Positions 8,653 to 27,937 of a DNA stretch of 64,000 nucleotides are shown one piece after another. This DNA comes from an uncultured Gemmatimonadales bacterium. GTDB lineage: Bacteria > Gemmatimonadota > Gemmatimonadetes > Gemmatimonadales > Gemmatimonadaceae. The DNA lies in assembly GCA_963793305.1 (NCBI GenBank), contig CAWBZV010000010.1, positions 64,001-128,000 on the forward strand, given 5' to 3'. The translations under genes were made by a program, and so were the position numbers. Within the stretch, counting starts at the first letter, position 1. The number at the start of each line of letters is the position of its first letter. The notes beneath the pieces are model-generated. The model did no database searches and was not told where the DNA came from. It saw only the letters and a program-made list of their open reading frames with translations.

Positions 8653-8726
8653 AAAATCCTCAGATCAGAGTCGTCGACAGAATACGATTGGGCGAGTGGA
8701 ACGTGGTCGGTCAATCCCTTCGCTGG

Positions 8727-8745
8727 CGTCAGGGATTCCCTTACG
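8727..8745. promoter_or_regulatory. 19-bp palindromic operator
   Basis: C-GTCAGG-GATTC-CCTTAC-G upstream of cytochrome c/cyc2, overlapping the oxidase stop codon. Confidence 0.6.
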
Positions 8746-9766
8746 CCGGCTTGACGATGAGGGCGGTCACCATGCCGAACATGCCCTGCTCCGACTCCGC
8801 GTGCGGCAGAATGTGGCAATGAAATGCCCACGTGCCGGGATTCGTGCAGTGCACGAGCACATCCCACCGCTCGCCGGGCGCGATGTTCAGCGTGTCGCAC
8901 TTCCACGGCGCGGGGTGCGTCCAGCCGTCTTTGGCGATCACGGTCATCGGCATCCCGTGAAGATGCATCGGATGGATCATCATCCCTTCGTTCATGTAGC
9001 GGATCCGGATTGTCTGACCCTGCTTTGCGACCAGCGGCTCCGTCGCGGGGAATCCCTTGCCGTTCAGCGTGAAGCCCCCGAGTCCATCGTTCAGGATCAT
9101 CACGTAGTCGAGATCGACCTTTGGCTCGCTCGACGCGTCCTTCGGCTCGACGATGAATGCGCCAAGGAGACCCTTCATGACCTGCGTGGTCGCGTTGTGG
9201 TGCGAGTGGTACATGTGCGACCCCGAGTGCGGGGCCGTAAACTCGTACGTGAACGACTGGCCCGGTTTGATCGGTGGCTGCGTGAGGAACGGCACGCCAT
9301 CCTGGTCGTTCGGCACCGAGAGGCCATGAAAGTGGATCGACGTTGACTGATCGAGCTCGTTCTTGAGATTGATCTTGACGCGATCGCCCTCGCGCACCCG
9401 GATCTGTGGGCCGGGGACCGTTCCGTTATACGCGAACGCCTCGACCTGCTGGCCCGGGGTAACCTCCCACTGGATCTTGGACGCCGTGATATCGAAGATC
9501 TTGACGCCGTTCTCGACGCGCGGCGCAAAGAGGACGTTGCCCTTCCCTTCGGTCTTCGCCGGAAAGGCTTTGACGCCCTTTTCGCACATCGCGTCCATCG
9601 CGTCGGCGGCTGCCGTCGGCGATGGAGGAGGTGGCGGCGGTGTCGTCGGAGTCGTCGCGGCGACGGCTTCCGCGGTTTTCGCGCGACACGCGGCGAGAAC
9701 GCCAACGGTCAGCGCCGCGGCTGCACCCTCGCGGAGAAACTGGCGGCGGTTCGTTGCATTGGACAT
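8741..9766 (-). CDS. Tat-exported two-domain multicopper oxidase (T1 Cu in domain 2)
   Basis: NRRQFL Tat motif; HFHG, YHSH, HPMHLHG, FHCHILPH...GM. Confidence 0.9.
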   Translation of the reverse strand: MSNATNRRQFLREGAAAALTVGVLAACRAKTAEAVAATTPTTPPPPPPSPTAAADAMDAMCEKGVKAFPAKTEGKGNVLFAPRVENGVKIFDITASKIQWEVTPGQQVEAFAYNGTVPGPQIRVREGDRVKINLKNELDQSTSIHFHGLSVPNDQDGVPFLTQPPIKPGQSFTYEFTAPHSGSHMYHSHHNATTQVMKGLLGAFIVEPKDASSEPKVDLDYVMILNDGLGGFTLNGKGFPATEPLVAKQGQTIRIRYMNEGMMIHPMHLHGMPMTVIAKDGWTHPAPWKCDTLNIAPGERWDVLVHCTNPGTWAFHCHILPHAESEQGMFGMVTALIVKPA

Positions 9767-10775: not shown

Positions 10776-11245
10776 GAAATGTCATGCCCCCATGCGATGA
10801 GTTGATGAACGACGGAGCGTATGAGACTCGGCAGACCGTCCTGTACGGCCGGGGAGAGACCAAGACCGACCGCCAGCCGGTCCGGCTGGAGCCCAAGCGC
10901 CCGCATCTCGGCCGGCCGGGTCCCTGTGAGATCGGCGAGCGCCAGCACATCACGCAGATCGATCTCGTGCGGCGACAACCGCATCGCGAAATGGCGCGGC
11001 AGATCATCACCGGCCAGTGTGATCGGATCACCGACGGGACGATTCGCGTCGATCGCGTCGACGAACAACACTCGCTTCGCCCCTTCGATCAGTGGCAACA
11101 ATCCAAGGCCGGCAGTGCCGCCGTCGACCAGTGACACGTCGGCCGGAAACGACCACTCCGCGCTCAACCGCGCGATCACCGCCGGTCCGAGCCCGTCATC
11201 ACCCATGAGCGGGTTCCCCAATCCCAGCACGAGCGTGTCACTCAT
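10772..11245 (-). CDS. hyaD: Hydrogenase maturation endopeptidase
   Basis: VLGLGNPLMGDDG.G, VDGGT, VDAI, SPHE. Confidence 0.92.
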   Translation of the reverse strand: MSDTLVLGLGNPLMGDDGLGPAVIARLSAEWSFPADVSLVDGGTAGLGLLPLIEGAKRVLFVDAIDANRPVGDPITLAGDDLPRHFAMRLSPHEIDLRDVLALADLTGTRPAEMRALGLQPDRLAVGLGLSPAVQDGLPSLIRSVVHQLIAWGHDIS

Positions 11246-11990
11246 CGACATACTCTTCCGAGGTCGACACGAACCGGCCGCCGCTGACAATGGACGTGAT
11301 CGTGCCCGAGCGCTCCATGATGTCGGATCGCGTCGCCAGATAGATGTGGATCGGGATGAAGAGGATGAAGAACCAGGTGAGCACGTGATGGACAACCCGC
11401 ACCATCTGGATGCCACCCAAGAGCGGAATTACCCAGGCGAAGGTCCGGAAGATCAGGCTTCCCGGCGCCGCCTGTCCGTACAGCGTGAATCCCGTGACGA
11501 TCATGACCAAGCCGACGACGTACACCAATGTGTAGGAGAACTGCTGCATCGGATTGTGGCCGAGGTAGTGCGGCCCTCGCTCCGGATGAATCATCAGGTA
11601 GTACTTGGTCATCCGAAAGAGATTGACCCAATCGCGCCCGCGCACCGGGAACAACGCCGCCAACCGCTCGAACTGGTTGCCGGCGAATAACCAATAGGCG
11701 CGTACGATCGCCGTCGCCACCAGCACACCGGCGGCGATGAAGTGGGCGAGGCGCACACCGCCCATGAGAAAGTGCGCGCTGGCTGGCCCGCTCGTCATGA
11801 AATACGGCCGGCCGATGTAGAACCCGGTGACGATCAGCACCACGATGCTGGCCGCCGCGCTCCAGTGCATGGCGCGAATCGGCCAGTGCCAGAGATAGAC
11901 CCACCGGTACTCGCCAGTTGGCGGCGGTATCGGGTGGGCGAGCGAGAAGTGCGCCTTGGCTCGCGTGCTCTTCTCCACGGGCGGAGTCAT
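11238..11990 (-). CDS. hyaC: [NiFe]-hydrogenase b-type cytochrome subunit
   Basis: WHWPIRAMHW, RLAHF, GHNPMQ, VHH...IHIY, ITSIVSG. Confidence 0.93.
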   Translation of the reverse strand: MTPPVEKSTRAKAHFSLAHPIPPPTGEYRWVYLWHWPIRAMHWSAAASIVVLIVTGFYIGRPYFMTSGPASAHFLMGGVRLAHFIAAGVLVATAIVRAYWLFAGNQFERLAALFPVRGRDWVNLFRMTKYYLMIHPERGPHYLGHNPMQQFSYTLVYVVGLVMIVTGFTLYGQAAPGSLIFRTFAWVIPLLGGIQMVRVVHHVLTWFFILFIPIHIYLATRSDIMERSGTITSIVSGGRFVSTSEEYVDE

Positions 11991-13702
11991 TGGACCGTTA
12001 CCCGCGTGATCAGCTCGCCCGTCGCGTCGAGCACATGGACCCCGCATGCCATGCACGGATCGAACGAGTGGATCGTGCGCAGGATCTCGAGCGGCTGATC
12101 GGGTTTCTGTAACGGATGATGATCGACGAGCGCCGCCTCGTACGGCCCCAACTGCCCTTGCGCATCCCGTGGGGAGCAATTCCAGGTGCTCGGCACCACG
12201 CACTGGTATCGCGAGATCTTGCCATCCTCGATCCGCACCCAGTGCCCGAGCGCGCCGCGCGGCGCGTCGAGATACCCGTACCCCTGTGACGTCTTGCTCC
12301 ACGTCGACGGCTCCCACTTCGCGCCGGCGAACGTCTGGTGATCGCCATTGGCGATCCGGCTCACGAGCGCCGCATACCAGACGCGCAACCGCCGGGCCAG
12401 GAGCAGCGTCTCCATCCCTCGCGCCGCGGTCCGGCCGAGCGTCGAGAACAGTGCCGGTGCACCGACTCCGAGTTTGCCAAGCGTCTCGTCGACCAGCGGC
12501 TTGACGTCGGCGTGGTTCGACGCGTAGGCCACGAGCATGCGGGCCAACGGCCCGACCTCCATCGCCTTGCCGTTGTACCGCGGCGCCTTCATCCACGTGT
12601 ACTTCTGCTCGTCCTGCAAGTAGCGCCAGGGCGGCTTCGGCCCCGTATAGTGCGGCGTCGTCTCGCCATCGTAGGGATGGAGCCCTTTCTCATTCCCGCC
12701 CGAGTAATCGTACCACGCGCTATGGATGTACTCGGCGATCCCGTGATGATCGTACGGCTCGACCTTGCTCAGGTCAGCGCCCATGATGATGCCGCGCGGG
12801 AAATAGAGCGTGTTGAGATCGCGCACGTCGCCATCGGGAAACTCACCCACGGCCATATAGTTGCGCGTCCCGCCGCCGATCGAGGCCCACTCTTTATAGA
12901 AGCCGGCAATCGCCACCAGATCGGGCCAGTAGACCTGCTCGACGAACCGCTGCGCGCGGTCGATCATGTCGCTGATCTCGATGAGCCGGGCCGCGTTGAT
13001 CATCCCCGCGCCATCCGGGTTGATCGCGGAGGCCATGCCGCCGACGAGAAAGTTCGGATGCGGGTTCTTGCCACCAAAGATCGTGTGCAAGCGAACGACG
13101 TCGCGCTGCCAATCGAGGGCCTCCAAATAGTGCGCGAGCGCGAGGAGGTTGACCTCCGGCGGGAGCTTGTACGCCGGGTGTCCCCAGTACCCATTGCTGA
13201 AGATCCCGAGCTGGCCGCCGGAGACGAACTTCTTGATCCGCGCCTGCACCTCGCCGAAATACGTCGGCGAATTATTGGGCCACGGGGAGATCGACGCCGC
13301 GATCTTCGCCGTTCCGGCCGGATTGGCCGATAGCGCGCTCACGACATCGACCCAATCCAACGCGTGCAAGTGATAGAAATGCATCACGTGATCGTGCACG
13401 AACTGCATGCCGACGACGAGATTCCGAATCAGGTTCGCGGCCGGCGGGATGCGGATGTCGAGCGCCTCCTCCACGGCGCGGCACGACGCGACCGCGTGCA
13501 CCACGGTGCAGACCCCGCAGATGCGCTGCGCGAACGCCCACGCGTCCCGCGGATCGCGCCCCTGGATCACGGTCTCGATGCCGCGAAACTGCGTCGACGA
13601 GGCCCATGCGTTGCTGATGCGCCCGTCCTCCGTCTGCACTTCGATGCGGAGGTGACCTTCGATCCGCGTCAGCGGGTCGACAACGACTTTAGTGACTGGC
13701 AT
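11987..13702 (-). CDS. hyaB: Group 1 [NiFe]-hydrogenase large subunit
   Basis: DPLTRIEGH, L1 motif QRICGVCTVVH, L2 motif SFDPCMACGVH, cleavable C-terminal tail. Confidence 0.97.
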   Translation of the reverse strand: MPVTKVVVDPLTRIEGHLRIEVQTEDGRISNAWASSTQFRGIETVIQGRDPRDAWAFAQRICGVCTVVHAVASCRAVEEALDIRIPPAANLIRNLVVGMQFVHDHVMHFYHLHALDWVDVVSALSANPAGTAKIAASISPWPNNSPTYFGEVQARIKKFVSGGQLGIFSNGYWGHPAYKLPPEVNLLALAHYLEALDWQRDVVRLHTIFGGKNPHPNFLVGGMASAINPDGAGMINAARLIEISDMIDRAQRFVEQVYWPDLVAIAGFYKEWASIGGGTRNYMAVGEFPDGDVRDLNTLYFPRGIIMGADLSKVEPYDHHGIAEYIHSAWYDYSGGNEKGLHPYDGETTPHYTGPKPPWRYLQDEQKYTWMKAPRYNGKAMEVGPLARMLVAYASNHADVKPLVDETLGKLGVGAPALFSTLGRTAARGMETLLLARRLRVWYAALVSRIANGDHQTFAGAKWEPSTWSKTSQGYGYLDAPRGALGHWVRIEDGKISRYQCVVPSTWNCSPRDAQGQLGPYEAALVDHHPLQKPDQPLEILRTIHSFDPCMACGVHVLDATGELITRVTVQ

Positions 13703-14819
13703 CGGGTTTTGTCTCCTCCGTCGCGCGCCGGCGCGTCTGAATCTGGTGAATGCCAGTCGCGGCGGCGTGCGCCGCGATGCCCGCGACCACGCCGATCGCG
13801 GCGGCGGCGCCGAACAGATCGGCCGTGCGCTCGACGCCGAACCCGGCGACGTTCGGCAAGCGGCCGTAGAACGGCGTCATCGTGTCCCAGAAATGCGGTT
13901 CGGTGCAACCGAGACAGGGATAGCCAGCGCCGATCGGCCAGCTGGTCCGCTCATTCCAGAGAAACGTCGGACACGGCGAGAACGTCGCCGGGCCCTTGCA
14001 GCCCACCTTGTACAAGCACCACCCCGCCTTCGCCGCGTCGTCATCAAATTGCTCCACAAACTGGCCCGCGTCGTAGTGCGCGCGACGTGGGCACGCGTCG
14101 TGGATCAACTCCCGGTACGCGAACAGTGGACGCCCCTCGCTGTCAGTATCCGGCAGCTTCCCAAATGTCAGGTAGTGCACGAGCGTCGCCGTCACGACAT
14201 CGCTGATCGGCGGGCAGCCGGCGATGTTCACGACCTGCCGATCCTTCAGGATATCACGAACGCCGACGGCGCCAGTCGGATTCGGGCGCGCGGCCTGTAC
14301 ACTGCCCCAGTGGGCGCACGCGCCAACAGCCACGATCGCCGCTGCGCCGGCCGCTGCCTCGACGAGGATATCCTGCACCGTGCGTCCCGCGATCGTCGTG
14401 TAGATCCCACCGTCTTTCGTCGGAATGGATCCGGTCACCAGCAGCACGTACTGACCGTGATTCGCTTGCATCGCGCTGTGCAACGCGCTCTCGGCCGCCT
14501 CGCCGGCGGCCGCCATCAGGTTCTCCTGAAAGTCGAGCGAGATGAGCCCGAGTATGAGGTCGCCGATCGTCGGGTCGGACGACCGCAGAACAGACTCGGT
14601 GCAGCCGGTGCATTCCTGCAACGACAGCCAGACGACGCTCGGCCGGCGCTGTGCTTCGAGCGCGGCGGCGACGCGCGGCAAGACCGTGGCGCCGAGCCCG
14701 AGCATCGCGGCCATCTGGCCGCAAAACTCGACAAACTCGCGGCGCGTGTAGCCCCGGCGCTCGAGATGGCCGCTGAGCGTCTCGCCCTCGACCCATGGTT
14801 CACGCGACGGATAGAGCAC
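13689..14819 (-). CDS. hyaA: Group 1 [NiFe]-hydrogenase small subunit
   Basis: Tat motif TRREFVEFC, ECTGCTES, GCPP, HDACPRR, CLYKVGCKGP, CLGC, C-terminal TM anchor. Confidence 0.96.
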   Translation of the reverse strand: MLYPSREPWVEGETLSGHLERRGYTRREFVEFCGQMAAMLGLGATVLPRVAAALEAQRRPSVVWLSLQECTGCTESVLRSSDPTIGDLILGLISLDFQENLMAAAGEAAESALHSAMQANHGQYVLLVTGSIPTKDGGIYTTIAGRTVQDILVEAAAGAAAIVAVGACAHWGSVQAARPNPTGAVGVRDILKDRQVVNIAGCPPISDVVTATLVHYLTFGKLPDTDSEGRPLFAYRELIHDACPRRAHYDAGQFVEQFDDDAAKAGWCLYKVGCKGPATFSPCPTFLWNERTSWPIGAGYPCLGCTEPHFWDTMTPFYGRLPNVAGFGVERTADLFGAAAAIGVVAGIAAHAAATGIHQIQTRRRATEETKPDASH

Positions 14820-14877: not shown

Positions 14878-15306
14878 ATGACGAGAGACGTGAGAATTCG
14901 CTCGCTTGGTGAGACGGTCGCGATCGCCGCGGTCATCGTGCTGCTCATGACCCTGGTATTCATCGAGCTCCGACGGCCGAGCCCAGCCGAGACGGCGCCC
15001 GCCGCCACCACCGCCGCTCCGGCGCAACGCGCGACCCCGGCGCTGCCGCCAACGACGCGCGCCGCGCTGGACGCCGGCAACACCGAGTTCCGCGCCAAGC
15101 AGTACGCCGCGGCACTCGGCCACTATCGTCTGGCCGCCCTCAGCTCGCCCGGCGAGGCAGCCCCCTTCTACGGGATCTACATGGCCGCACAGGCGCTCAA
15201 CAACAGACCGCTCGCGGACAGCGCGGTGGCCGAGATCCGCGGCCGCACGGGTGGCACGGGGCCGTTCAACGATACCTCGCTCAGGGCGCTGCACGGCACG
15301 CGCTAG
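14878..15306 (+). CDS. Hypothetical membrane-anchored TPR-like protein
   Basis: N-terminal TM helix, Ala/Pro linker, TPR-like GNTEFRAKQYAAALGHY...YGIYMAA. Confidence 0.55.
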   Translation: MTRDVRIRSLGETVAIAAVIVLLMTLVFIELRRPSPAETAPAATTAAPAQRATPALPPTTRAALDAGNTEFRAKQYAAALGHYRLAALSSPGEAAPFYGIYMAAQALNNRPLADSAVAEIRGRTGGTGPFNDTSLRALHGTR

Positions 15307-15308: not shown

Positions 15309-16715
15309 TTAGGGAGCCACTCCGAACGGATCGCTGATGTGGCAGACGAGGCAGATGGAACGATTGCGTTCCCACATCCGGCGGGCGTCGAAGTTCGGGC
15401 CGTGCGGATTCACATGGCCGCCGATGTCCGAGTGGCACGCAACGCAATCGCGCTCCTGATGACAGCTCGTGCACGTCGCCAGATCGCGGCGCGCCGCCTG
15501 GCCATGCTGCAACAGCCAGAGCGGCTCCGCCGTGTGAAACGCGATGTTGCGATTGGCGCGCGAGGCGATCCCGACGTTCATGTGACACGTCCGGCAGAAC
15601 GACTCGGTGTTGTGACACTTAGCGCAGTCGATCTGCCGCGCGTACGAGTCCGCGGCATGATGGGCCATGAAGTTCGCCGGATGGAAGCCCCGGGTCGTGC
15701 GGCCGGCGTGGCACGAGACGCAGAAGACCTGTTGCTCGTGGCACCCGGCGCAGTTCATCTGACGGGTCGACGCCGCAGGCCCGTGTGACGTGACGAATCC
15801 CGACGGATGCACGCGCGAGACATACATGACACCCACGCCGGCCGGACCCGCACCGGTCGGCGCCGGCAGTCGCGCGATGACCGCCGGCGCTTCCCGGCCG
15901 GCGTGACACGACGCGCAACTCGGCCGCGTATGACAGTTCGCGCACTGGGCGATATTCGTGCGCGCGGCACTCCCGTGATCGTACGGCCACGACGCGGCCG
16001 TGTGACTCGGTGGCCGCGGGTACTCGGCGGGGCGGCCAGCCATAAGCCGCGCGACACGAGTATCCCGCGCCAGCGTCGCGATCGCCGGCACCGCGGCGCC
16101 ATTGAAATGGCATCGCTCGCAGCTCTCGCGCGCGTGGCACGTGGCGCACTGCGCCTGCTCGGCCGGCGACGTCGGCGCGTGCGCGAGGACAAAATCGTCC
16201 GCGCGGTGCGAGGCCGGCTTGTCGAACGCCGCGATCTGCCGCTCGGTGAGCGCGCTTGCTTCCGTCAATGGGACGTGACACGTCGCGCAAACGGCCTGCG
16301 GCGCCAGATGCTCGGCAACGCGATGCGCATGGCAATCGATGCACAGCGCCGGCTGCGCGCGCGCGACGTCCATCCACACGACCTGCCCGCGCTGCGCCGT
16401 GTGACACGACATGCAATCCAGCGAGTCGCCGGTACCACTGGTACGGCGGTAATGCTCCGCGTGGTCGAAGATCACATTCGTCGCGACGCGGCGAGGCCCG
16501 CTCCACGGCACCTCCTTGAGCTCGCGCCCAGTATGGCACCCTTGGCAGGACGCCGCTGTCGGGAAAAGCCTGGCACTGTCGCCGGACGCGATGCCGGCGT
16601 GACAGCCGAGGCAGGTTGGAAAGACCTTGGCGTGGCGGGCGTGCGGAAAGCCCTGGTCGTCCTGACGGAGCCCCCACGTCAACGCCAGCACGATGGCGGC
16701 GATCGTCCAGCGCAT
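15309..16715 (-). CDS. Exported 16-heme c-type cytochrome
   Basis: 16 CxxCH motifs counted by eye, many paired in the C-terminal half; N-terminal signal-like segment. Confidence 0.92.
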   Translation of the reverse strand: MRWTIAAIVLALTWGLRQDDQGFPHARHAKVFPTCLGCHAGIASGDSARLFPTAASCQGCHTGRELKEVPWSGPRRVATNVIFDHAEHYRRTSGTGDSLDCMSCHTAQRGQVVWMDVARAQPALCIDCHAHRVAEHLAPQAVCATCHVPLTEASALTERQIAAFDKPASHRADDFVLAHAPTSPAEQAQCATCHARESCERCHFNGAAVPAIATLARDTRVARLMAGRPAEYPRPPSHTAASWPYDHGSAARTNIAQCANCHTRPSCASCHAGREAPAVIARLPAPTGAGPAGVGVMYVSRVHPSGFVTSHGPAASTRQMNCAGCHEQQVFCVSCHAGRTTRGFHPANFMAHHAADSYARQIDCAKCHNTESFCRTCHMNVGIASRANRNIAFHTAEPLWLLQHGQAARRDLATCTSCHQERDCVACHSDIGGHVNPHGPNFDARRMWERNRSICLVCHISDPFGVAP

Positions 16716-18154
16716 CACCGCAACCCCGGATCGCGGCCCAACGTCCACTCAAGCCGAAACGACGCCCGCGTCTGATTCCAGTTGGTGATCTGCGGCGTCT
16801 CGCCGCCAACGTAGCGATAGATCCCCACGTCGGCGATCGCGCTCAACCCGGCGAGGATCTCGACGCTGCCCGCGAGTCCCACACCGAGCACCTGCCCCGT
16901 GCCGACCTGAAACTCATACAGGGTCTCGGAGGCGCTGCCGGTGAGGTCGATCGATGTATGCGCCGTCGGCGTCCAGCGCAGGCCTCCGCTGGCATCGTCC
17001 AGTGTCGCGCCCGAGCCGTACAGGAGGCGATACTCACCGTGCACGGTCCATTTCGGGATGAACCGCCACGAGCCGGTCGCGTCGACGTCCCAGCCGCTAT
17101 TGACGAGTGGCAGAAAATTGACCCCGGCGTTTGCCTGATCGTACCGTCGCGCTCCGCCGCTGAGGCTGAACGCAAAGCGCTGATCGGTGCTGCCCCACGC
17201 CGCACCCAGTCGCTCCTCGGTGTAACCCACGGGAGCAAACACGCCCCAGATCGTCCACAGGTCGAAGTACGGCGAGTAGCGCCGCACCTCGGCATCGACG
17301 TGGAACCCCAGTCCGAGCGGCGCCTGCGCCCGAATGTGCGCGTCGTTGAACGTGCCGGTCGCGAGGTCATACTGCAGGCCGCCGCTCAGATCCAGGCGCG
17401 CGAACCGAACGTCGCCATCGGCCGCGAACCGGTCAGAGTAGAGACCGGCGGCGTCGGTGCGAAGCTCGCGCTGATACTGCACGTCGAACGACGCTTGCGG
17501 GACGGGCCGGATCTCGAGCTGTGCGCCGAGCAGATACGACCCCTCGTTCGGCGCCAGCGGCTCGATCGTCGTGACGGCCGAGCTGGTCACCGTGGCGTTG
17601 AGCCCCGGAACGAGGCTTCGACCGCCGTACACGTTGACCGACAACTGATCGATCGGCCGGACCAGGACCGATCCGCCGTCATAGTTATAGTAGCCCAACC
17701 CCGACTGGATCCACGCTCGTCCGGCCTGGACCCGAAAACGGTCACTATCGTATTCCAAGTAGCCGCTCAACACCTCGAACGAGTTGGCCTGAGGGAAGAT
17801 TTCCGACGCGCTGCCACCGGCCGTGCTGCCTCGGACGCTCACGTACGCGGAGAGGCCTGGCACGAGCCCCCACGCGCTCACATCGAGGGCCTGATAGGCC
17901 GGAATCGTGCTGACCCGCGGCGCCGAGCGCACGTACTGGCAGTACGCGTCGCCGCTAATGCACTCGACGATGATGCCGTTGGCCGTGCGACGCAGGAGAC
18001 CACTGTCCTGGGTCGCGGCGATCGGCACGCTGTCCTGAACCATCGGCTGAACGTCGACATACTCGACGACCGACGTGCCGGAGATCCGCACTCCCTGCGC
18101 GCCGAGCGGTCCAGCGCTCAATAGCATCGCCAGCGCGATGCCCCGCCCCGTCAT
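16715..18154 (-). CDS. Putative outer-membrane beta-barrel (porin of a porin-cytochrome complex)
   Basis: Signal peptide (..PLGA/Q), Gly/aromatic-rich amphipathic strands, terminal RASFRLEWTLG; translationally coupled between two multiheme genes. Confidence 0.75.
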   Translation of the reverse strand: MTGRGIALAMLLSAGPLGAQGVRISGTSVVEYVDVQPMVQDSVPIAATQDSGLLRRTANGIIVECISGDAYCQYVRSAPRVSTIPAYQALDVSAWGLVPGLSAYVSVRGSTAGGSASEIFPQANSFEVLSGYLEYDSDRFRVQAGRAWIQSGLGYYNYDGGSVLVRPIDQLSVNVYGGRSLVPGLNATVTSSAVTTIEPLAPNEGSYLLGAQLEIRPVPQASFDVQYQRELRTDAAGLYSDRFAADGDVRFARLDLSGGLQYDLATGTFNDAHIRAQAPLGLGFHVDAEVRRYSPYFDLWTIWGVFAPVGYTEERLGAAWGSTDQRFAFSLSGGARRYDQANAGVNFLPLVNSGWDVDATGSWRFIPKWTVHGEYRLLYGSGATLDDASGGLRWTPTAHTSIDLTGSASETLYEFQVGTGQVLGVGLAGSVEILAGLSAIADVGIYRYVGGETPQITNWNQTRASFRLEWTLGRDPGLR

Positions 18155-19956
18155 GACCCCGTTCCGTGCTGCCACTCGACTTGATGACAGCCGGCACATT
18201 CACGTCCGGGATGGTGGTCGACGAGCGTCTGGTGACACACCAAGCAGACATTGCGCACCGGTGGGAGCGCGGCCGAGGCCGCATCCTGGTGGCAACCGCT
18301 GGTCGCGCAGCCGCGATGGGCGCTGCGCGTATGCGCGGTCTTCTCTGGCGCATGGCACCCGCGGCAGTTGACGGGGTGGATGTTGGGCCCTGCCACATGG
18401 TGGTCGACGTGGCATGACTCGCAGTCGCGAGACGGCTCGAGCGTCACGGGTGTGTCGTGACACCGCGCGCAGGCAACCGACGTGTGCGCCGAGTGAGCGA
18501 ACGTGAGGTTGCGTGCGTGAGGGGTCGGGTTCACCGACGAGCGGAAGACCGTCGGCACAATGGCACGCGCCGATATCTCGGCTGGCACATGGCAGCCGGT
18601 ACAGGCGGTCGTGTGGTCGGCCGCATGATGGCAGGATTGGCAATCGCGGACGCTGTGCAGCGCGATCTCGCCGTGCCGGTGCTCGCTCGAGTGACAACTC
18701 GTGCAGGCCACGTTTGGGTGACGCTGGTGCGAGAACGGCGGCAGCGAATCGGCTGCAGGGAGAAACGCGGCCGGTCTAAACACTGGCGGAGCACGGGCAG
18801 CGGCTCGCGTCTCATCGCCATGACTCATGATGTCGCGATGGCACGTGAGGCACGCATTGGCGCTCACGGTCCAGGTGTGCGCCTTGTGGCAGCTCTCGCA
18901 GTTCGCCAGCACTTGGGGCGCCAGCCCTTTGTGCAGCGGCGTCAGCGTATCGGGGCGCACGTGACAGCCCGCGTTGGTACACGTGGTGGCCGCCGCCTGC
19001 GGCGTAGTCTGCGTATGCGGGTTGTGACACCAGCCGCACTGTCCCCGGTGCGGGTCGCGCGCTGGATCGAAGTTGGCCAGCACTTTCTGCATCGCATGAC
19101 ACCCGAAGCACTCGTTGCCGCCGGGCACCAGGGCGCGGTGAGCGGAGTCGGGCGACACATGGAGGCCGACGCGCCGGGTGAAGGCGTGGCACGTCACGCA
19201 GTGCATTTGCGTCTGCATCGCCATCTTGCCGAGATGGATCTCGGTGTGCTCATGACAACCAGACTGACCACACGTCTGCTGGATCGGGAGAAAGCGGTGC
19301 AGCTCGACACCGTGGCAGGTCGTGCATTGCATATTGCGCAGCGACCCCGTGTCGTTCTCCAGATGAACGCGATGCCCCGCGGTCGCCAGGATCTGCTTCC
19401 AGATGCTGTCCGGACGATCTTGGTTGTGGCAGCGGAGGCACGCGCGGTTCGGCACCTTCGCGTGCGGCGGAATCGACTGGGGGCGCTCGGCGATCTGATA
19501 ATAGACCTGCTTGACGTCCGCGATGATGCCCTGCTGATGGCAGTCGTGGCACTCGAGCTGCTTGTGCTCGCTGCCTTGGAAGCGGCTGTACGCCGGGACC
19601 ATGACGTGACAGGCGACGCAGAAATCGTTGCTGTGTTGCGTGTAATTCCAGCTCGCGGCGCTAAACATCGCTGCGCCGACGAGGCAGAGGCCCGCCGCTG
19701 CGGCGAGGCCGATCAGGACTGGACGTGAGCGTGAGCGAAGCCACGCGATGATCGCGGTCCGGTGCCGCCAGAGGAGCCAGGCGATCCCCGCCGCGGCGAG
19801 GACGCCCACCACGAACACCGTGATCTGCACCCACGACGGGAGATTGAACGCGAACCGAAAGAGTGCCGCGACGCCGCCGGGCAACGGCGAGCGCACGACC
19901 ACCGAGTCCAGCGCAACGGTATCGCCCGGTAGCCGTTGCGGGAGCAACCCGCTCAC
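18151..19956 (-). CDS. Membrane-anchored multiheme cytochrome with NapC/NirT-like N-terminus (17 CxxCH + 3 CX4CH)
   Basis: Two TM helices, then YTQHSNDFCVACHVM...SEH...CHDCH; CGQSGCH, CTNAGCH and CATSGCH. Confidence 0.9.
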   Translation of the reverse strand: MSGLLPQRLPGDTVALDSVVVRSPLPGGVAALFRFAFNLPSWVQITVFVVGVLAAAGIAWLLWRHRTAIIAWLRSRSRPVLIGLAAAAGLCLVGAAMFSAASWNYTQHSNDFCVACHVMVPAYSRFQGSEHKQLECHDCHQQGIIADVKQVYYQIAERPQSIPPHAKVPNRACLRCHNQDRPDSIWKQILATAGHRVHLENDTGSLRNMQCTTCHGVELHRFLPIQQTCGQSGCHEHTEIHLGKMAMQTQMHCVTCHAFTRRVGLHVSPDSAHRALVPGGNECFGCHAMQKVLANFDPARDPHRGQCGWCHNPHTQTTPQAAATTCTNAGCHVRPDTLTPLHKGLAPQVLANCESCHKAHTWTVSANACLTCHRDIMSHGDETRAAARAPPVFRPAAFLPAADSLPPFSHQRHPNVACTSCHSSEHRHGEIALHSVRDCQSCHHAADHTTACTGCHVPAEISARAIVPTVFRSSVNPTPHARNLTFAHSAHTSVACARCHDTPVTLEPSRDCESCHVDHHVAGPNIHPVNCRGCHAPEKTAHTRSAHRGCATSGCHQDAASAALPPVRNVCLVCHQTLVDHHPGRECAGCHQVEWQHGTGS

Positions 19957-19958
19957 GT

Positions 19959-21423
19959 TCAGTGCGGCAGCCTAACGCCCGACGGGTGCTTCAGCTTGAG
20001 CTCGAGCGAGACCCTCTGCGTCGACGGCACACCGTACGTGTTCGTCATCGCCGAGATACTGCCCGTGAGCAACGCCTCCATCAAGAACGGGTTGTGAATC
20101 GGCGATCCCGGTAGCTCCGCAAGCTGCGGCGTTGAACAACGATCCCGCCGCCACCGTGTACGTGGCATTCGTCGATGCCGTCTCGGCCGGCGTCGCGCCA
20201 AGTACGGTCGCGAGTTGCGTTCGGAGCACCGTGTCCAGTTGCAGAATCCGTCCCACGCCTGTCAGATACGCCGACACCGCGACCGCCTGCGTCCCGTGGC
20301 ATCCGCTGGCCGTGCACCCAGCAAAGCTACGCGCTGCCGTCGTGACCGCGCAGTTCGTGGTGCCTGCTGGTAGCCCTTGCGCATTGATGCAGGGGATGGC
20401 GTTGAAGCTATGGCCCGTCGTGTGGTACACGAATTTGCCGGACGTATCGCTAATCGTGAGGCTATCGACATGGCACGTCGCGCACAGCCTGGGGTTGGCC
20501 GACGAGCCGTGGGTGCTGATAATTGTGTCGATTCCCCCAGGGATCTGGAGATTCGGCGGGAACCAGCCGGCCGTGCCGAGCAGGAGCGGGCCTTCGGGCG
20601 AATGCGGACCGTACTTCTTGGTGTCCGCATTGAGCACGCTACCGTTCTGGTGGCACTTCATGCACAGGTTGACCGACACGTCAGCGACGTTGATGGGGAA
20701 CCGGAGCTGGCCCGCATTGGCGTTGCTGTGCGGGTCGTGGCACACAGCGCACGTGATCGGGAGCGTGTCGCCGTTGGCGAAGCCCGCTTCTTTATAGTTC
20801 GTGTTCACGCCCCAGGCGACCAGCGCCCCTTGCCCCGTGTGGCAGCCCTGACACTGCGCGTTCGCCTCCGGGTGCGCCTCTTGCCAAGCCGGGACAGTGG
20901 CGTGACGCGAGGTCACCCACTCGTTGACAAACGGTTCGTGAACGCCGGTGTGACACGCGCCGCAGCCAGTCGTGCTGCTGGTGTCTGCGCGTAACGACGC
21001 GAGCGGATGATTCGTGATCGACGGACTCGTGACGTGCGTCAGTCCGGGGCCATGGCAGTTCTCACACTGGACGTCCTGGTAGCGCGGGTCCTTGGTAGCG
21101 ACGTAACCGACCTGCGCTGAGCTGGCCCCGTTGCCGTTCTGGCCGACGCTATGGCACTGCTGACAATTGGCGGGGTTTTCGCCCGTGGCGGTCAGGTCCT
21201 TCCAGGCATGCGCGTGCGCGGTCTGGATCCACGGCGTCTGGTGGTCGACGTGGCAGTCTCCGCAAACCGTCATCTGCGTGGAGACCGTGGCGTAGCCGAG
21301 GAAGCCGCCAGCATTGGAAGGCGGGGCGGCGAAGTTCGTGCTGCGGTAGACGATGTGATCGTGCACACAACCCAGCGCACTGGCGCTGGCGAGAACCGTC
21401 GCGAACCAGACTGACCGCCTCAT
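19959..21423 (-). CDS. Multiheme cytochrome lipoprotein (8 CxxCH + 1 CX4CH); frameshift near 20128
   Basis: Lipobox SALG/C; removing one base restores FNAQLAELPGSPIHNPFL to TGA at 19959. Confidence 0.85.
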
Positions 21424-21497: not shown

Positions 21498-21557
21498 GAT
21501 CATCGATTGGTCGTGCGATATGGTAACGAGTTGTGTGCCTATTCCCGTGAACTGGAG

Positions 21558-22347
21558 ATGGCATCGATGACGACAGGCGCGACTCCGGCAGCGTTGACGA
21601 TCACGTGCGCGACCTGCGGCACCGAGTCGACCGGCGCGCGGTTCTGCCCCTCCTGCGGGGCGCCGCTCCAGGGCGCGCGATGCGGCGGGTGCGACTCGAC
21701 GCTGCTGACCGGCGCCCGTTACTGCCACCGATGCGGCACGGCAGCCGGCGCCGCGGGGCCCTCGCGCCTGCGCGTCGCGCCAGCGACGCCTTGGGTCGTC
21801 GCGGCCGTCGCGCTGTTGGCGCTCGTCGTCTTGATCGTGAGCAGACGGTCGACGCCCGCAGCCGTCGACGTCGCCGCGGCCGACCCACCCGCGGCCCCCG
21901 CGGCCGGCGCGCTGGATATCAGCGCAATGTCCCCAGCGGAGCGGGCGGACCGGTTGTTCGACCGGGTGATGCGACTGCACGAGGAGGGGAAGGACGACAG
22001 CGTGCAGTTCTTCCGACCGATGGTGCTCTCGGCGTACCAGATGATCGGGCCGCTCGACCTGGATCAGCACTACGACCTCGGTGAGATCGGAGAGACGCTC
22101 GGCATGATGAATCTGGCGACCGCCGAAGCCGACACGATTCTCCGCGCCGAGCCCAAGCATTCTGCTCGGGCTCGCGCTCGCCGCGCGGGTCGCGGCCGAG
22201 ACGCAGCATGCCGCTGCCGCCCGCGGCTACTACCGCCGGCTGCTGGCTGCGGCGCCGACCGAGCGCCAGCGTCCGCTCCCGGAGTACACGCGGCACGACA
22301 GGGACATCACGACCGCGCTCGCCGCCGCGGCGGCGCTGGGGCGTTGA
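21558..22347 (+). CDS. Double zinc-ribbon membrane protein with TPR-like C-terminus; frameshift near 22160
   Basis: CATC, CPSC, CGGC, CHRC, then a TM helix; the corrected frame reads EPKHLLGLALAAR...ALGR*. Confidence 0.75.
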
Positions 22348-22364
22348 GGGGTAATGTCCGACCG

Positions 22365-22496
22365 GTCGAGCAGGCGGCGTGGAGCGTCAACGGCGTCCGC
22401 GCGATTGCCGAGCGGCTGCGCGTGCGCCGGACGTCCGACACCGGCCCATCCGATACGGCGCTCGCGCTCGCGGTGCTGAAAGCGCTCGAGCATGAG
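22365..22496 (+). pseudogene. BON-domain gene fragment
   Basis: VEQAAWSVNGVRAIAERLRV...GPSDTALALAVL aligns with VERAIWSVPDVRAITQRLRS...GPTDRTLASDVL of the BON gene at 41252. Confidence 0.6.
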
Positions 22497-22614
22497 CCTG
22501 CGGCCGCCGGATGCCGTCCGCGCGGACATCCCGGTCGGCCGGGCCTTCGAGATGTCGCTGACCAGACACGCCCAGGCGTGATGTGCGAAACCGCGCCGCT
22601 GTTGCCAGCGGAGC

Positions 22615-22947
22615 TCACTTCGAGGAGAGTCCACGGACGTACTTCGCGAGGGTTGCCATCTGACTCGACGTGAGCTTGCCTTTGAACGGTGGCATGTCTC
22701 CGCCCTTTCCTCCCGTGAGCACTTTCACGATCGAGTCGTCCGTGCGCACCGCGATGAACGCGGAGTCGAACGTCGGGATCTTGTTGAGCGCCGACTTGAC
22801 GTTCTTCGGCGGGAGCCCGCGGACGCCGTGACATTGCATGCAGTTCTGGTCGTACAAAGCTTTGGCATCGTCCTGCAGACCGTGCACACGAACTGATGCA
22901 AGCGATGCCAGCAGCGTGAGGGAAAAACCTACGACCCGGATGATCAT
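22615..22947 (-). CDS. Monoheme class I cytochrome c
   Basis: Signal peptide, YDQNCMQCHG, GDMPPF. Confidence 0.9.
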   Translation of the reverse strand: MIIRVVGFSLTLLASLASVRVHGLQDDAKALYDQNCMQCHGVRGLPPKNVKSALNKIPTFDSAFIAVRTDDSIVKVLTGGKGGDMPPFKGKLTSSQMATLAKYVRGLSSK

Positions 22948-24446
22948 CGCGTGCTCGTGGTTGTGCGTGGCTCGGGAAACGTATCGCGGAACTCCGGCGG
23001 CTGCGTCGCCCCGTGCGGGCCCCGCAACGACGACAGGTACTGGGCGAGCTCTTCGATTTCCTGATGGCTCAGCGTCGGCGGTCCGAACGCTGGCATCTTC
23101 GAGTCGCGATGAAAGCGCGTCGGCTCTTCGATGAAACTGTGCAACCAGGCGGTTGAATGCAACAAGCCGATGCTCCCGAGCTCCGGCGCGTTCGGGGCAG
23201 CGGCGGATTGCTGCACCGGCGGTCCGTTGATCTGATGACAGCCGCCGCATTGTTGCTGCGCGAACAAGGTGCGACCGGCGCGCTCGACGTACGTCAATGG
23301 CCGCCCGACCTCGGGCACGATCCTCGGTGAAGGCGCATCATGGGCCGACGCGCCGAAGAGCATCGCCACCACCGCCGCCGTCACGCCAAGCGAAAGGAGC
23401 GCCAGCGGCCGACGACGGAGCGAACGGGCACTCCCCCGGTCGAAGAACGGAAGGAGGAGGAGCCCCAACGCGACGAGACCCGGGACACCCACGGCGATGA
23501 CGCTCTCGAGCGCGCCGGGGACGAGCTTCAGCAGTTGAAAGAACGGCAGGAAATACCATTCGGGCCGCGGCACGTAGACCGCATCAGTCGGGTCGGCGGG
23601 GGATTCGAGTCCGGCGCCTTGCACGCTCGCGAGCAACACGAGCAACGCGACGACTCCAGTCGCGACAACGATATCCTTCGCGATGATGTCGGGCCAGAAC
23701 GGAACGCCTTTGGCCTTCGACTCCGCACTCGTCTCGCGATAGAACTGGGCATAGGCGCCGTCGCCGGTGCTCGCCGGTGCATCACGCTCCAGTACCGCGG
23801 GTGGCGATGCGATGCCTTGCCGAACAACGAGCGCGAGGTGCAGCAATACGACCACCCCGATCGCGAGCGGCAGGACGAGCACGTGCAACGAATAGAAGCG
23901 CGTGAGCGTGGCGGCGCCGAGCTGCCCCCCTCCGCGCAGCAGCTCGACCAGAACGCCCCCGACGATCGGCGTCGTGCCGGCGATATTGGTGCCCACTTGC
24001 GTCGCCCAATATGCCTTCTGGTCCCAAGGCAACAGGTACCCGGTGAACCCGAACCCCAGCACGACGAAGAGCAGGACGACGCCAAGAAGCCAGTTGAGCT
24101 CGCGGGGATACTTGTACGCGCCCATCGTGAAGACGCGAACCATGTGGGCGCAGACGAGTACGACCATCGCCGAGGCACCCCAATGGTGAACCCCGCGCAG
24201 CAGCGCTCCGCTGGCAACCGTTTGGTCGATGTAGCGAATGCTGTCGTACGCGTGGTCCGGCGACGGCGCATAGTACATGGCGAGGACGATGCCCGTCACG
24301 ACCTGCACGGCAAGCACCGTCAGCGTCGCGCTGCCGAGGGTGTGCGACCACGTGAGCCCGGACGGCATCTTGCGGTCGAGCAGTGTTCGGCGCAACTCGG
24401 CGACGTCTACGCGCACATCGAGCCAACGGGCTATGGCGGCGAACAA
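22944..24446 (-). CDS. qcrB: Cytochrome b fused to subunit IV and a C-terminal cytochrome c (bc complex)
   Basis: RGVHHWGAS, AHMVR, TGYLLPWDQ, TLTRFYSLH, PEWY, CGGCH...SKMP. Confidence 0.92.
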   Translation of the reverse strand: MFAAIARWLDVRVDVAELRRTLLDRKMPSGLTWSHTLGSATLTVLAVQVVTGIVLAMYYAPSPDHAYDSIRYIDQTVASGALLRGVHHWGASAMVVLVCAHMVRVFTMGAYKYPRELNWLLGVVLLFVVLGFGFTGYLLPWDQKAYWATQVGTNIAGTTPIVGGVLVELLRGGGQLGAATLTRFYSLHVLVLPLAIGVVVLLHLALVVRQGIASPPAVLERDAPASTGDGAYAQFYRETSAESKAKGVPFWPDIIAKDIVVATGVVALLVLLASVQGAGLESPADPTDAVYVPRPEWYFLPFFQLLKLVPGALESVIAVGVPGLVALGLLLLPFFDRGSARSLRRRPLALLSLGVTAAVVAMLFGASAHDAPSPRIVPEVGRPLTYVERAGRTLFAQQQCGGCHQINGPPVQQSAAAPNAPELGSIGLLHSTAWLHSFIEEPTRFHRDSKMPAFGPPTLSHQEIEELAQYLSSLRGPHGATQPPEFRDTFPEPRTTTSTR

Positions 24447-24965
24447 CTACGCCTCGACCTGATTCGCGATACCAAGGCGGAAATCCTTGTAGTTGACCCA
24501 GACCGCGCCGTCACGTACTTCCGCCTTCAACTCGTCGAGCGACCGCGGCGGTGGGCCCGCCAGCACTCGGCCCGTCGTGATATCGAACTGTCCGTGATGA
24601 CACGGGCAGACGAAGTTCTTCGTGCCCTGATCGTACCCGAACGCGCAGCCCAGGTGCGTGCAGTGGGCATTATAGGCCTTGAACGTCTTGCCGTTCTTCG
24701 TGTAGAGCCAGACGCTATTCAGTTGCCGATCCTCCACCCACGCGTCGACCCTGCTTTCGACGAAGCTGACGCGCAGTGGAATATCCGTGTCGATCAGAGC
24801 AACGTCGTCGGCGACCTTCACCCAGCGATCGGGCCTCGCCGAAGACAGTGACGGTGAGAGGAACGCTCGGAGCACCGGAAAGCCGACGAGCGCGGCGCCC
24901 AGTGTCGCTCCGATACCGCTGACCCACTGCAGGAAGCGCCGCCGACCCACCCGTGAGTCACTCAC
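24447..24965 (-). CDS. qcrA: Rieske [2Fe-2S] subunit of the bc complex
   Basis: Tat motif GRRRFL with TM helix, CTHLGC, CPCHHG, GPPPRSL. Confidence 0.93.
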   Translation of the reverse strand: MSDSRVGRRRFLQWVSGIGATLGAALVGFPVLRAFLSPSLSSARPDRWVKVADDVALIDTDIPLRVSFVESRVDAWVEDRQLNSVWLYTKNGKTFKAYNAHCTHLGCAFGYDQGTKNFVCPCHHGQFDITTGRVLAGPPPRSLDELKAEVRDGAVWVNYKDFRLGIANQVEA

Positions 24966-24976
24966 CGCCTTGCGCC

Positions 24977-25819
24977 TCAGTTCACGGTGATAGTTTGGAT
25001 CATCCCTTCCATGAAGTGCGGCTTCCCGTTCTTGATGTCCGGGATGAGGCACAAGAGCGCGTAGTTGCCCGGCTCGAAGGTCGCGGTAAACGATTGCACG
25101 ATGCCGGTGGCCGCGGCCGCAGTACCACCCATGGCGTGCCCTGGCGCCGGGCCCTGCATGGTGCGAGCCCAGTCGATGTAGTCCTGCCCCGTCTTGCCGG
25201 CGTCGAGCTGCACGACGAGCACCTCATGGGGCTGCCCCGGCGCGGTCACGACCTCGAAGGTGTGTGTGCCAGCCGTGATCGGCTTGGCGAGGGCGAACAC
25301 GAAGTCGCTCAGTGTGATGGCGTTGTCGGTGACCGGCGCGATGGCAACCGGCCCCCCGGGCGTTGCCGGCGACGCCGCGGTCACGGTCAGCGCGCGGTAC
25401 ATGCCTTTCATATAATGCGGCACGCCATTGGGCACGTCGAGAATGCAGATGATCGCGTAGTTGCCAGCCGCAATGTCGAGCGTCGCGGCCGATTCCTTTC
25501 CCGGATCGGGCACATTGGGGCCGCCGACATACGTTGCCCACGCCGGCAAGGCGTACTGTTTCTTGATCGCGACCAAGAGATCGGCGACCGTCTTGCCGCT
25601 GTCGAGGCGAACGAGCAGGGCGTGATGCAACCCTGGTCCGCGGTTGACGAGATGGAACGTCGTGACGCCGGCGGCAATCTGCGCTGGCGCAACGAATGCG
25701 AAGTCGCTGGCCTCTATCATCACGGACGCCGGTCCGGGTGGTGAGGCGGGAGGCGTCTGCTTTGATTCACAGGCTGTCACGAGCAGACCGAGTGCGAGAG
25801 CGGAACGGTAGGTGCGCAT
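24977..25819 (-). CDS. Lipoprotein with two tandem cupredoxin-like domains
   Basis: Lipobox VTA/C; two repeats H...Y(A)xxC...PH(Y/F)MxGM giving His/Cys/His/Met ligand sets. Confidence 0.75.
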   Translation of the reverse strand: MRTYRSALALGLLVTACESKQTPPASPPGPASVMIEASDFAFVAPAQIAAGVTTFHLVNRGPGLHHALLVRLDSGKTVADLLVAIKKQYALPAWATYVGGPNVPDPGKESAATLDIAAGNYAIICILDVPNGVPHYMKGMYRALTVTAASPATPGGPVAIAPVTDNAITLSDFVFALAKPITAGTHTFEVVTAPGQPHEVLVVQLDAGKTGQDYIDWARTMQGPAPGHAMGGTAAAATGIVQSFTATFEPGNYALLCLIPDIKNGKPHFMEGMIQTITVN

Positions 25820-25905
25820 GCGACCCCGCCAGCGGAAGAGGGAACGCTACGACTGCGCCATCATATCGCCGTCGATATGGTCCGGGAATAGGAGAATATT
25901 CGACG

Positions 25906-27937
25906 CTATGTACGGGAAACGCTGACAGCGGATGCCGACTCGAGCACGGTCTGATATCCGCTCTTCGCCCGAGACCGCTCCGCTTGCGGCCACATGACGA
26001 TCAACCCGCCGATGGCCATGGTGAGCCCGCCATACCATACCCACCAGACCAGTGGATTGAACGTGATGCGGATTTCGGCGGTATCCTCGTTGATCGCGCC
26101 GGCGAGCACCACGTAGAACGTCCTGAGCCAGGCCTTCCTGGATGCCGACCGCGGTCGACGGCTCGAACGTCCCGTTGCCGCGGCTATCGAAGTGCTGCCG
26201 CTTCTCGCTCTCGATGAGCGGCATGCGCTGGCCATCGCGGGTCGGCTTGAGCGTCACGGCAACCACATGGCGGTTGAGCTGGTCGAACAGTGACACGCCT
26301 TCGCTCACGAAGCGCCAGTGATGTCCGTATGGGTCGGTCGTTTCGAAGCTCTCGCCAGTGTGCAGCGTCACGTCGTTCTCGCGCTTGAACGCGAGACCGG
26401 CGAACGCGCAGAACAGAATGACCACGCCCGCGTGTACGATGTACCCGCCGTAGCGCCGACGATTCCGGCCGACGAGGCGCACGAATGCCACGGGCGCCGA
26501 TTCGCCGTGCATACGCCGGCGTGCCCCGACTCCCTTGTAGAATTCCTGCGCTATCGTCCCAGCGACGAACCCCGCCAGCGCATAAGCCACGACTGCGTGC
26601 CACTCGCGCATGCCCGCTGCCACCAGCAGCACACCGGTCGAAACGCCAGTGAACGTGGGCAGAACGAACTGCCGCTTGAGATTCGCGACCGACGCCCGGC
26701 GCCAGGCGATCAGCGGACCGATTCCCGTGAGCAATAGCAACAACAGGCCGAGCGGGATGTTGACCGCGTTAAAAAATGGCGGGCCGACCGTGATCTTCGA
26801 GCCGCGCACCGCCTCGCTCAGGATCGGGAAGAGCGTGCCCCACAGCACCGAGAACGCGATCCCGACCAGCAACAAATTGTTGTAGAGAAATGCCGCTTCC
26901 CGGCTGACCATGCTCTCCAGCTCGGCCTTGGCCTCCAAGTCCTTGAGACGAGTCGCCACCAGGTAGGCCGTGACCGCGACGCAAGCAACCAGCATCCCCG
27001 CGAACCAGTTGCCGACCGGTGACTGTGCGAACGAGTGGACGCTCGAGATCACGCCGCTGCGCGTGATGAACGTGCCGAGAATCGCGAGCAAGAACGTCGA
27101 CACCACCAGCACGACGTTCCATTTGCGGAGCATGCCCCGCTTCTCCTGGACCATGATCGAGTGCAAGAACGCGGTGCCCGTGAGCCACGGGAGCAGCGAT
27201 GCGTTCTCGACGGGATCCCACGCCCAATATCCACCCCAGCCGAGCTCGACGTAGGCCCACCACATGCCGAGCGTGATGCCGACCGTGAGAAAGAACCATG
27301 AGACGAGCGACCACCGGCGCACGGCGCTGAGCCACTCGGCGTCGAGCCGGCGCGTAATCAGCGCGGCGATCGCGAAGGCGAACGGGATCGCGGTCGCGAC
27401 GTAGCCGAGGTACAGGTTCGGTGGGTGAATCGCCATACCGGGATTCTGGAGCTGGGGATTGAGCCCGTTGCCGTCGGCCGGCATCCAGTCGAGGTGGTCG
27501 TACGGATTCGCGCCAAAACACATCGTCGCCAGAAAGAACAGCGTAATGGCCGACAGGGTGCCCGCGACATACGGCATGAGCACCTGATTGCGGCCACGAT
27601 TCGTCCACAGCGCGACGGCCGAATACGCGCTCAGAATCAAGCACCAGAAGAGCATCGAGCCGGCTTGCCCTGCCCAGAACGCGGTCAGCGTATACACGAA
27701 CGGCAAGTTGGCACTCGTGTACTCGGCCACGAACTTGAGCGAGAAGTCGTGGGTGATGAGCGCGGTCCAAAGTCCGAGTGACGCCAGCGCAACGAACCCG
27801 CACGTGGCATAGATCCCCCGTGCGCCGCTCTCGACCAGGTTGCGCCAATGGAGCGCGCCGCCGGCGAACGAGACGACCGTGGACCAGGTGGCGACGACGA
27901 GCGCCAACCAGAGGGACAACTCCCCGATGAGTATCAC
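25906..27937 (-). CDS. ccmF: Cytochrome c heme lyase CcmF; frameshift near 26117
   Basis: FWAGQAGS, IHPP.LY.GY, WAYVELGWGGYWAWDPVENAS, SVHSF; corrected C-terminus QDVYVVL...NPLVWWVW. Confidence 0.93.

Follow-up and report, generated by a model that had tools for sequence, protein, structure and literature searches.

A conserved porin-cytochrome operon of Gemmatimonadota, a probable conduit for extracellular electron transfer

We analyzed a 64,000-nucleotide stretch, the window, from the genome of an uncultured Gemmatimonadales bacterium (GenBank assembly GCA_963793305.1, contig CAWBZV010000010.1, positions 64,001 to 128,000 of the forward strand), and within it a coupled four-gene operon, A to D, that combines a predicted outer-membrane β-barrel (C) with three multiheme cytochromes. 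All four genes lie on the minus strand (Table 1) and together carry 9 + 20 + 0 + 16 = 45 heme motifs: eight CxxCH and one CX4CH in A, 17 CxxCH and three CX4CH in B, and 16 CxxCH in D. Stop and start codons overlap at the B/C and C/D junctions, and third-position GC is 0.77–0.83 across the four frames, as in real genes. An initial annotation had read this locus, with the same four coupled genes and about 45 motifs, as a porin plus multiheme wire to the cell surface, describing A as a nine-motif lipoprotein, B as a 20-motif cytochrome with a NapC/NirT-like head, and the 16715–18154 product, C, as a β-barrel; our motif counts, family searches, and models agree with it on each point. The operon is the sole large multiheme cluster of the 5.7-Mb genome (92% complete): we found no second copy there and only one further protein with at least five CxxCH motifs, and no GC anomaly at the operon marks an island. 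A–D is a real, conserved, and uncharacterized variant of porin-cytochrome design. We put at roughly two in three (0.68) the probability that it is a conduit sending respiratory electrons outward to solids, humics, or cells, where direction and substrate are what we infer from the evidence below.

The AlphaFold2 model of C, built with 76 homologs, has 22 membrane strands and no plug (pLDDT 88.1, pTM 0.81), with long loops on one face, short turns on the opposite face, and no usher or POTRA domains. The first outer loop forms a subdomain with a Cys65/Cys72 pair, 96% conserved; part of this subdomain is missing in one family of genomes. Searches of Pfam, NCBIfam, and PDB sequences with C gave no match. 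Among the 76 homologs, generic families were matched by a few (OMP_b-brl by nine, Porin_4 by four) and an MtrB family of Pfam or NCBIfam by none at E 0.05, nor did the C profile find MtrB among PDB sequences. A structure search returned generic outer-membrane barrels only, the best being a SusC-type transporter (Z 18.8, rmsd 5.3, 381 residues aligned), with MtrB at rank 15 (Z 15.8, rmsd 5.2, 358 aligned), and an Atlas search returned solely unnamed clusters, mostly from Gemmatimonadota.

For its 16 hemes, D holds 15 invariant non-motif histidines plus H136/M115. Like B, it has about 30 residues per heme and conserved histidines sufficient for bis-His ligation. Six-coordinate hemes suit electron transfer rather than catalysis, and the ligands available in D are enough to make its hemes six-coordinate, which suits the former. 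Modeled alone, D gave a pLDDT of 71 and was poor at residues 327–369; Foldseek found no fold match at E 0.001, and the best VIA match (Z 4.1) was to ACIII ActA over residues 18–148. This outcome points to neither a new nor a known fold. Identity with HmcA, also a 16-heme protein, was rejected, as the matches were local and far below the cut-off. The decaheme family of DmsE and MtrA (TIGR03508) was matched by 0 of 55 D homologs at E 0.001, and D itself reached MtrA only at E 0.16.

Complex prediction, one of the checks suggested in the initial annotation, placed D inside the barrel. When C (residues 20–479) was co-folded with D (residues 18–468), the ipSAE was 0.77, 0.77, and 0.74, and the best of three controls scored 0.00; the mark applied to this score is reached by 116 of 157 solved complexes and by 2 of 215 mismatched pairs. 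Between runs, 86% or more of the contacts agree, and partner pLDDT is 74 or higher. Only residues 304–458 of D, containing its last seven hemes, touch C. On C, the contacts lie on alternating strand residues in 21 of the 22 strands and on all 11 long outer loops but on none of the 10 short inner turns, a pattern that fits a partner in the lumen reaching the outer face. The invariant C loop residues W303, G304, F306, and P308 pack on D 409–425, at the last hemes of D, and C columns are more conserved at the interface (0.60) than elsewhere (0.49). Among 109 D homologs complete at both ends (the window’s own D counted in), which have 10–18 hemes, the last seven motifs are retained in 108, and length variation is confined to the N-terminal part, the first nine hemes. 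The complex prediction supports binding of D by C.

A pattern search of GTDB genomes recovered 75 loci, 72 in Gemmatimonadota and 3 unclassified, all from metagenome-assembled genomes (MAGs). With a C profile, 141 of the 301 phylum genomes searched match: this one, 132 of 283 in families f1–f9 (E 1e-51 or better), and, weakly, 8 of 17 in three distant families, where the two loci examined both have a 14-heme D homolog. Matches occur in 19 of 40 near relatives and in none of five genomes of the same genus; 819 representatives (50% identity) match C at E 0.001. The synteny survey, also suggested initially, found D directly after C at every one of the 120 loci where 600 nt or more of sequence follow C (115 taken by filter and 5 by inspection; a few share a genome, and three loci with shorter flanks were left out). 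A and B are each missing at some loci; C and D never separate. About half of the window’s sampled words, near-identical pieces included, were also present in a peat metagenome.

The lipoprotein assignment of A rests on a lipobox-like ALG-C19, with Cys19 invariant in 64 of 64 homologs; Cys345 and Cys358 form a further invariant pair. The two best PDB matches of the A profile were 6QVM (E 1.3e-19, positions 88–453) and 6I5B (E 1.8e-13), which are OmhA and OcwA (PMC9250108). This homology spans the nonaheme core plus C-terminal helices and, at the level of sequence, A belongs with OcwA/OmhA, a relation that the initial annotation missed. Both are described as surface proteins involved in reducing Fe(III) (PMC9250108, PMC7829351); OmhA was detected at the cell surface as well as on magnetite of biogenic origin, and OcwA groups in a subclade with nonahemes of Gram-negative bacteria (PMC7829351). 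A contains no CxxCK catalytic motif and has no NrfA family match. In a pairwise alignment, the positions corresponding to the distal histidines of OcwA’s two five-coordinate hemes are both His here (H162 in 51 of 64 homologs, H274 in 41, with Met instead in 23); the His/Met switch at residue 274 (about position 20603) may tune potential or catalysis. The genome also encodes a type II secretin, GspD, above the cut-off, and in Shewanella MtrC/OmcA are exported by type II secretion (PMC3279761).

As read in the window, gene A spans 19972–21423, with an early stop at 19972 caused by one extra base at 20126; the resulting tail is unconserved, and the homologs’ conserved HNPF helical tail sits in another frame. 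This base is missing from short-read contigs of two runs of one study (X1 and X2, of which X1 may be the window’s own source), and contigs of one to three runs also lack the single extra bases found in the window at 22160, 26117, and 28527. These insertions, which break gene A, a zinc-ribbon gene, and ccmF in this assembly, indicate assembly errors. Gene A therefore truly ends at 19959, 2 nt before B, and a pseudogene or programmed frameshift was rejected on the same grounds.

B has two hydrophobic segments (about residues 35–62 and 77–102) around an Arg-rich loop. Its head profile matches NrfH (2J7A_C, E 1.6e-10), PF03264 is found in 30 of 34 B heads, the window’s own scoring 26.4 bits against a cut-off of 24.1, and the CxxCHxM motif of heme 1 is kept. 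The C-terminal module, with 8–10 hemes, stands alone as an exported protein at other loci, which makes B a fusion. The initial proposal that quinol dehydrogenase and periplasmic span are joined in one protein is plausible: an NrfH-like head is followed by 16 more hemes, but Lys82 and Asp89 of NrfH are not kept. Quinol is bound in NrfH by Met49, Lys82, and Asp89; CymA does without Met49 and Asp89 (PMC3279761) yet needs the Lys (PMC2762525). K149 of B lies near the missing Lys82 position and may substitute for it, and quinol oxidation by B is plausible.

We compared 85 well-flanked loci, whose flanks reach 4.5 kb or more upstream and 5 kb or more downstream, and found A in 76, the B head in 45, and a hydrogenase in 21. 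Of the 40 loci that have no such head, 26 encode a CbcL-like protein, another cytochrome with an NrfH-type head, or cytochrome b, the last usually together with a Rieske protein, and a hydrogenase is present at a further 12; a second quinone module accompanies the B head at only 6 of 45 loci. Counting NrfH-like heads, CbcL-like proteins, cytochromes b, and hydrogenases together, at least one is encoded at 83 of the 85 loci. The best explanation is that C and D are a fixed core, with the inner-membrane input and the surface cytochrome as exchangeable modules.

Several loci depart from the window’s arrangement. Six (L070, L073, L093, L095, L114, and L116) have the barrel-wire core without A but with a 19-heme CbcL-like protein and an 11-heme cytochrome, and several of these add 22-, 9-, and 4-heme cytochromes and two cytochrome b genes. 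At L004–L011, L031, L035, L042, and L104, A is duplicated in tandem and B is absent, mostly with a hydrogenase operon after D. In the Gemmatimonadales loci L050, L052, L054–L056, L060, L063, L064, L068, L071, and L106, a second pair of very large cytochromes (23 and 16–34 hemes) lies 2–4 kb downstream of D.

Table 1. Operon A–D and neighboring genes, in window coordinates
Feature	Coordinates	Strand	Description
Gene A	19959..21423	-	Lipoprotein cytochrome c with nine hemes, related to OcwA/OmhA; candidate terminal reductase of the cell surface; 487 aa
Gene B	18151..19956	-	20-heme inner-membrane-anchored cytochrome: two transmembrane (TM) helices, then an NrfH/NapC-like head with four hemes, 7 further hemes, a Pro/Ala linker, and a C-terminal module with 9 hemes
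Gene C	16715..18154	-	479 aa, no heme motif; predicted 22-strand plug-less outer-membrane β-barrel of an unnamed family; 45-residue first outer loop
Gene D	15309..16715	-	Exported wire of 16 hemes (29 aa per heme), the last 7 of which are predicted to lie in the barrel lumen
TPR-like small membrane-anchored gene	14878..15306	+	Convergent with D; weak LcrH/SycD TPR match (E 0.002); homologs beside many related loci
Membrane-bound [NiFe] hydrogenase (small subunit, large subunit, cytochrome b)	11238..14819	-	PF00374, PF14720, PF01292
Rieske protein, cytochrome b fused to cytochrome c, monoheme cytochrome c (bc-type quinol-oxidizing module)	22615..25052	-	PF00355, PF00033/PF00032/PF00034, PF13442
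ccmF heme-attachment gene	25847..27937	-	PF01578, PF16327; extra base at 26117; recurs beside related loci

The operon is flanked by two further, possibly quinone-linked systems (Table 1). The hydrogenase is a possible electron donor to the quinone pool, and the Rieske/cytochrome b/monoheme trio also stands directly after D at three related loci (L103, L110, and L120). The initial annotation called the wire self-contained; with these modules on its flanks the term may be too strong. Upstream of the Rieske gene lies a tandem cupredoxin-like lipoprotein (24977–25819, minus strand) with genome paralogs at 80% and 35% identity. Divergent from A is a double zinc-ribbon membrane protein (21507–22673, plus strand), which has a paralog on contig C3 and homologs beside ccmF at many related loci. 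A second ccmF copy, 88% identical, is on contig C2, and next to ccmF the gene at 27934–28400 (minus strand), which we take to be CcmE-like, has a CxxxY motif in place of the usual His motif. Farther off (6896–9766, minus strand), a protein of about 460 residues with one N-terminal CxxCH followed by barrel-like sequence is encoded after genes for a monoheme cytochrome c and a multicopper oxidase of the Tat type. It resembles Cyc2; its nearest Atlas family was Porin_O_P at 0.97, on 20% of members. A search of the genome with a loose Cyc2 motif gave no match.

The observations fit together in a proposed electron path. Menaquinol, formed with electrons from organic-carbon oxidation or from the uptake hydrogenase beside the operon, would be oxidized by the NrfH-like head of B, by the neighboring Rieske/cytochrome b module, or by both; menaquinone genes are reported in Gemmatimonadota (PMC9426454). 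Electrons would then cross the periplasm through the remaining 16 hemes of B and the nine N-terminal hemes of D, which probably also span part of that space, and the seven C-terminal hemes of D are predicted to carry them through the outer membrane within C, a placement that conservation backs. On the outer face, by homology, the OcwA/OmhA-type A would reduce Fe(III) or Mn oxides, humic substances, or a partner cell. This supports the original reading of a multiheme wire to the cell surface: C models as a barrel and D is predicted inside it, so that neither outcome named there as refuting the reading was seen, be it a 16715–18154 product that is no β-barrel or cytochromes that all match characterized soluble enzymes and have no outer-membrane association.

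Several points weigh against this account. Similarity to MtrAB may account for part of the passing score of the C–D complex. The quinol site of B is noncanonical: the NrfH Lys82 position is a Ser beside a nine-residue gap and is not conserved, the Asp89 position is Gln in the window and Gln, Glu, or Lys across B heads, and the heme-1 Met is present in only 26 of 51 long-B heads (Phe in 24, one mis-parsed). B as part of the core is contradicted by the 40 of 85 well-flanked loci without its head, and A, whose outer-face placement is read from homology, is missing near 9 of the 85. Swapping of the B head with other quinone modules is suggestive only: naive Fisher tests (p 1e-5 and 1e-7) were set aside because kin are not independent, and after tree correction the swap was seen in about 5 versus 0.4 of 10 independent pairs (83 of the 85 loci), with a median p of 0.06. 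The genome also contains three full-length heme-copper oxidase-family genes, so that an anaerobic lifestyle is not implied. Finally, all members of the OcwA/NrfA/HAO superfamily described in PMC9250108 show nitrite or NO reductase activity in vitro.

The strongest rival, which we nevertheless consider unlikely, is the same conduit run inward, in which Fe(II), reduced humics, minerals, or partner cells would donate the electrons and B or the Rieske/cytochrome b module would hand them on to quinones and oxidases. The architecture leaves direction unfixed, CymA-like and CbcL-like proteins are present in organisms that reduce Fe(III) as well as in those that oxidize Fe(II) (PMC6295460), and MtoAB and PioAB are thought to work inward. 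The several terminal oxidases of the genome and the single-heme barrel-like gene, cytochrome c, and multicopper oxidase 7 kb away would suit this direction as well. However, the surface component groups with the reductases OcwA and OmhA, an uptake hydrogenase, itself an electron donor, is a frequent neighbor (21 of 85), and a low-potential menaquinone would favor export.

Slightly less probable still is a conduit that feeds a surface enzyme for a soluble substrate, as in DmsEF, with A as the reductase of NO, of a nitrogen or sulfur oxyanion, or of a toxic one, or with A and B forming an NrfHA-like periplasmic pair. The NrfH-like head of B, the in vitro activities across A’s superfamily, and the His retained in A at both distal positions all speak for it, whereas the missing CxxCK motif and NrfA match speak against it; moreover, a periplasmic A–B pair needs no invariant barrel-wire pair, and it is A and B that are dropped at some loci while C and D are inseparable. 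That there is no conduit at all, with C a pore through which D is secreted or assembled, or the hemes only an electron store and the genes clustered by shared heme maturation, is very improbable: the best structure matches of C are generic transporter and usher barrels and ccmF is often adjacent, but C lacks a plug and usher or POTRA domains, seven hemes thread stably up to the outer loops in the predicted interface, with the W303/G304/F306/P308 loop on D’s last hemes, and quinone-type modules co-occur almost universally.

Taken as an outward conduit, the operon shares with MtrCAB and CymA of Shewanella (PDB 6R2Q; also MtoAB, PioAB, and DmsEF) a wire in a plug-less barrel, a lipoprotein cytochrome, and an NapC/NrfH-type quinol link. 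The parts differ: D has 16 hemes and only the marginal match to MtrA, A is OcwA-like rather than MtrC-like, and the NrfH-like head, encoded within the operon, is part of a protein, B, that has 16 more hemes. MtrB has 26 strands, whereas C has 22 predicted strands and no MtrB family match in its homologs. Compared with NrfH, NapC, and CymA (2J7A), the B head shares the TM helix, heme-1 CxxCHxM, distal His, and heme spacing but has an extra N-terminal TM helix, no conserved Lys82, and the additional hemes. OcwA (Thermincola, 6I5B) and OmhA (Carboxydothermus, 6QVM) are Gram-positive cell-surface proteins without a porin, whereas their nonaheme homolog A is a lipoprotein in a porin operon with the extra invariant Cys pair.

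With the Geobacter Pcc systems (OmaB-OmbB-OmcB, Ext) and their inner-membrane partners ImcH, CbcL, and CbcBA, the operon shares a porin, a wire, a lipoprotein cytochrome, and several alternative quinol oxidases, relatives of the window locus using CbcL-like (19 hemes plus cytochrome b) or Rieske/ExtP-like modules much as Geobacter does. No component has an NCBIfam match at the cut-off, a comparison made at the level of curated families, and the heme counts differ. B has 20 hemes and ImcH homologs have 6–10; a CbcL homolog is also reported in a Gemmatimonadetes MAG (PMC6295460). PCC3 and PCC4 (He et al. 2017, PMC5566968) are likewise predicted porin-cytochrome clusters with heme-rich cytochromes of few residues per heme and an inner-membrane link. 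As described there, however, they are defined by a five-helix inner-membrane protein with two HX13H motifs, which the A–D operon lacks; PCC3 porins have up to 42 strands, with cytochromes of about 21 and 34 hemes against 9, 20, and 16 here, and PCC4 has 4-, 5-, and 10-heme cytochromes, none extracellular. In the Pfam and NCBIfam profile searches, which had also been suggested as a check, no component of A–D reached the curated cut-off of a known conduit family. The initial statement that heme counts and organization are unlike those of MtrAB, PioAB, and Pcc agrees with the counts and, for the Mtr-type systems, with the family searches.

Gemmatimonadota abound in soils and sediments and are regarded as, for the most part, heterotrophs that respire O2. 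We found no description of the A–D operon in the literature searched, a search outside which most subscription papers fall. Multiheme and Cyc2 genes have been noted in Gemmatimonadota MAGs (PMC9769843), 36 porin-cytochrome MAGs are listed in a Gemmatimonadota-rich community (PMC13264449), and a survey of 326 Gemmatimonadota genomes describes mainly O2 use, with “iron” and “extracellular” nowhere in its main text (PMC9426454). No curated family matches C or D, so marker sets based on Mtr and Geobacter families would miss the conduit. A broader proposal, to which we give somewhat less than even odds, is that about half of main-class Gemmatimonadota genomes carry an independently built conduit, with a new 22-strand barrel, a new 16-heme wire, an OcwA-type surface reductase, and plug-in quinone modules paralleling ImcH, CbcL, and CbcBA, in which a single membrane-anchored protein replaces diffusible periplasmic shuttles; these bacteria would form a large, overlooked guild respiring minerals and humics, some of it H2-fueled. 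If true, this would be a third way of building a transmembrane heme wire, with 22 strands around seven luminal hemes, and would associate the OcwA/OmhA family with a porin of Gram-negative bacteria; specific residues for testing are supplied by the predicted C–D interface. Gemmatimonadota, with the barrel in 141 of 301 genomes, would then join the Fe, Mn, and humic cycling of soil, peat, and sediment.

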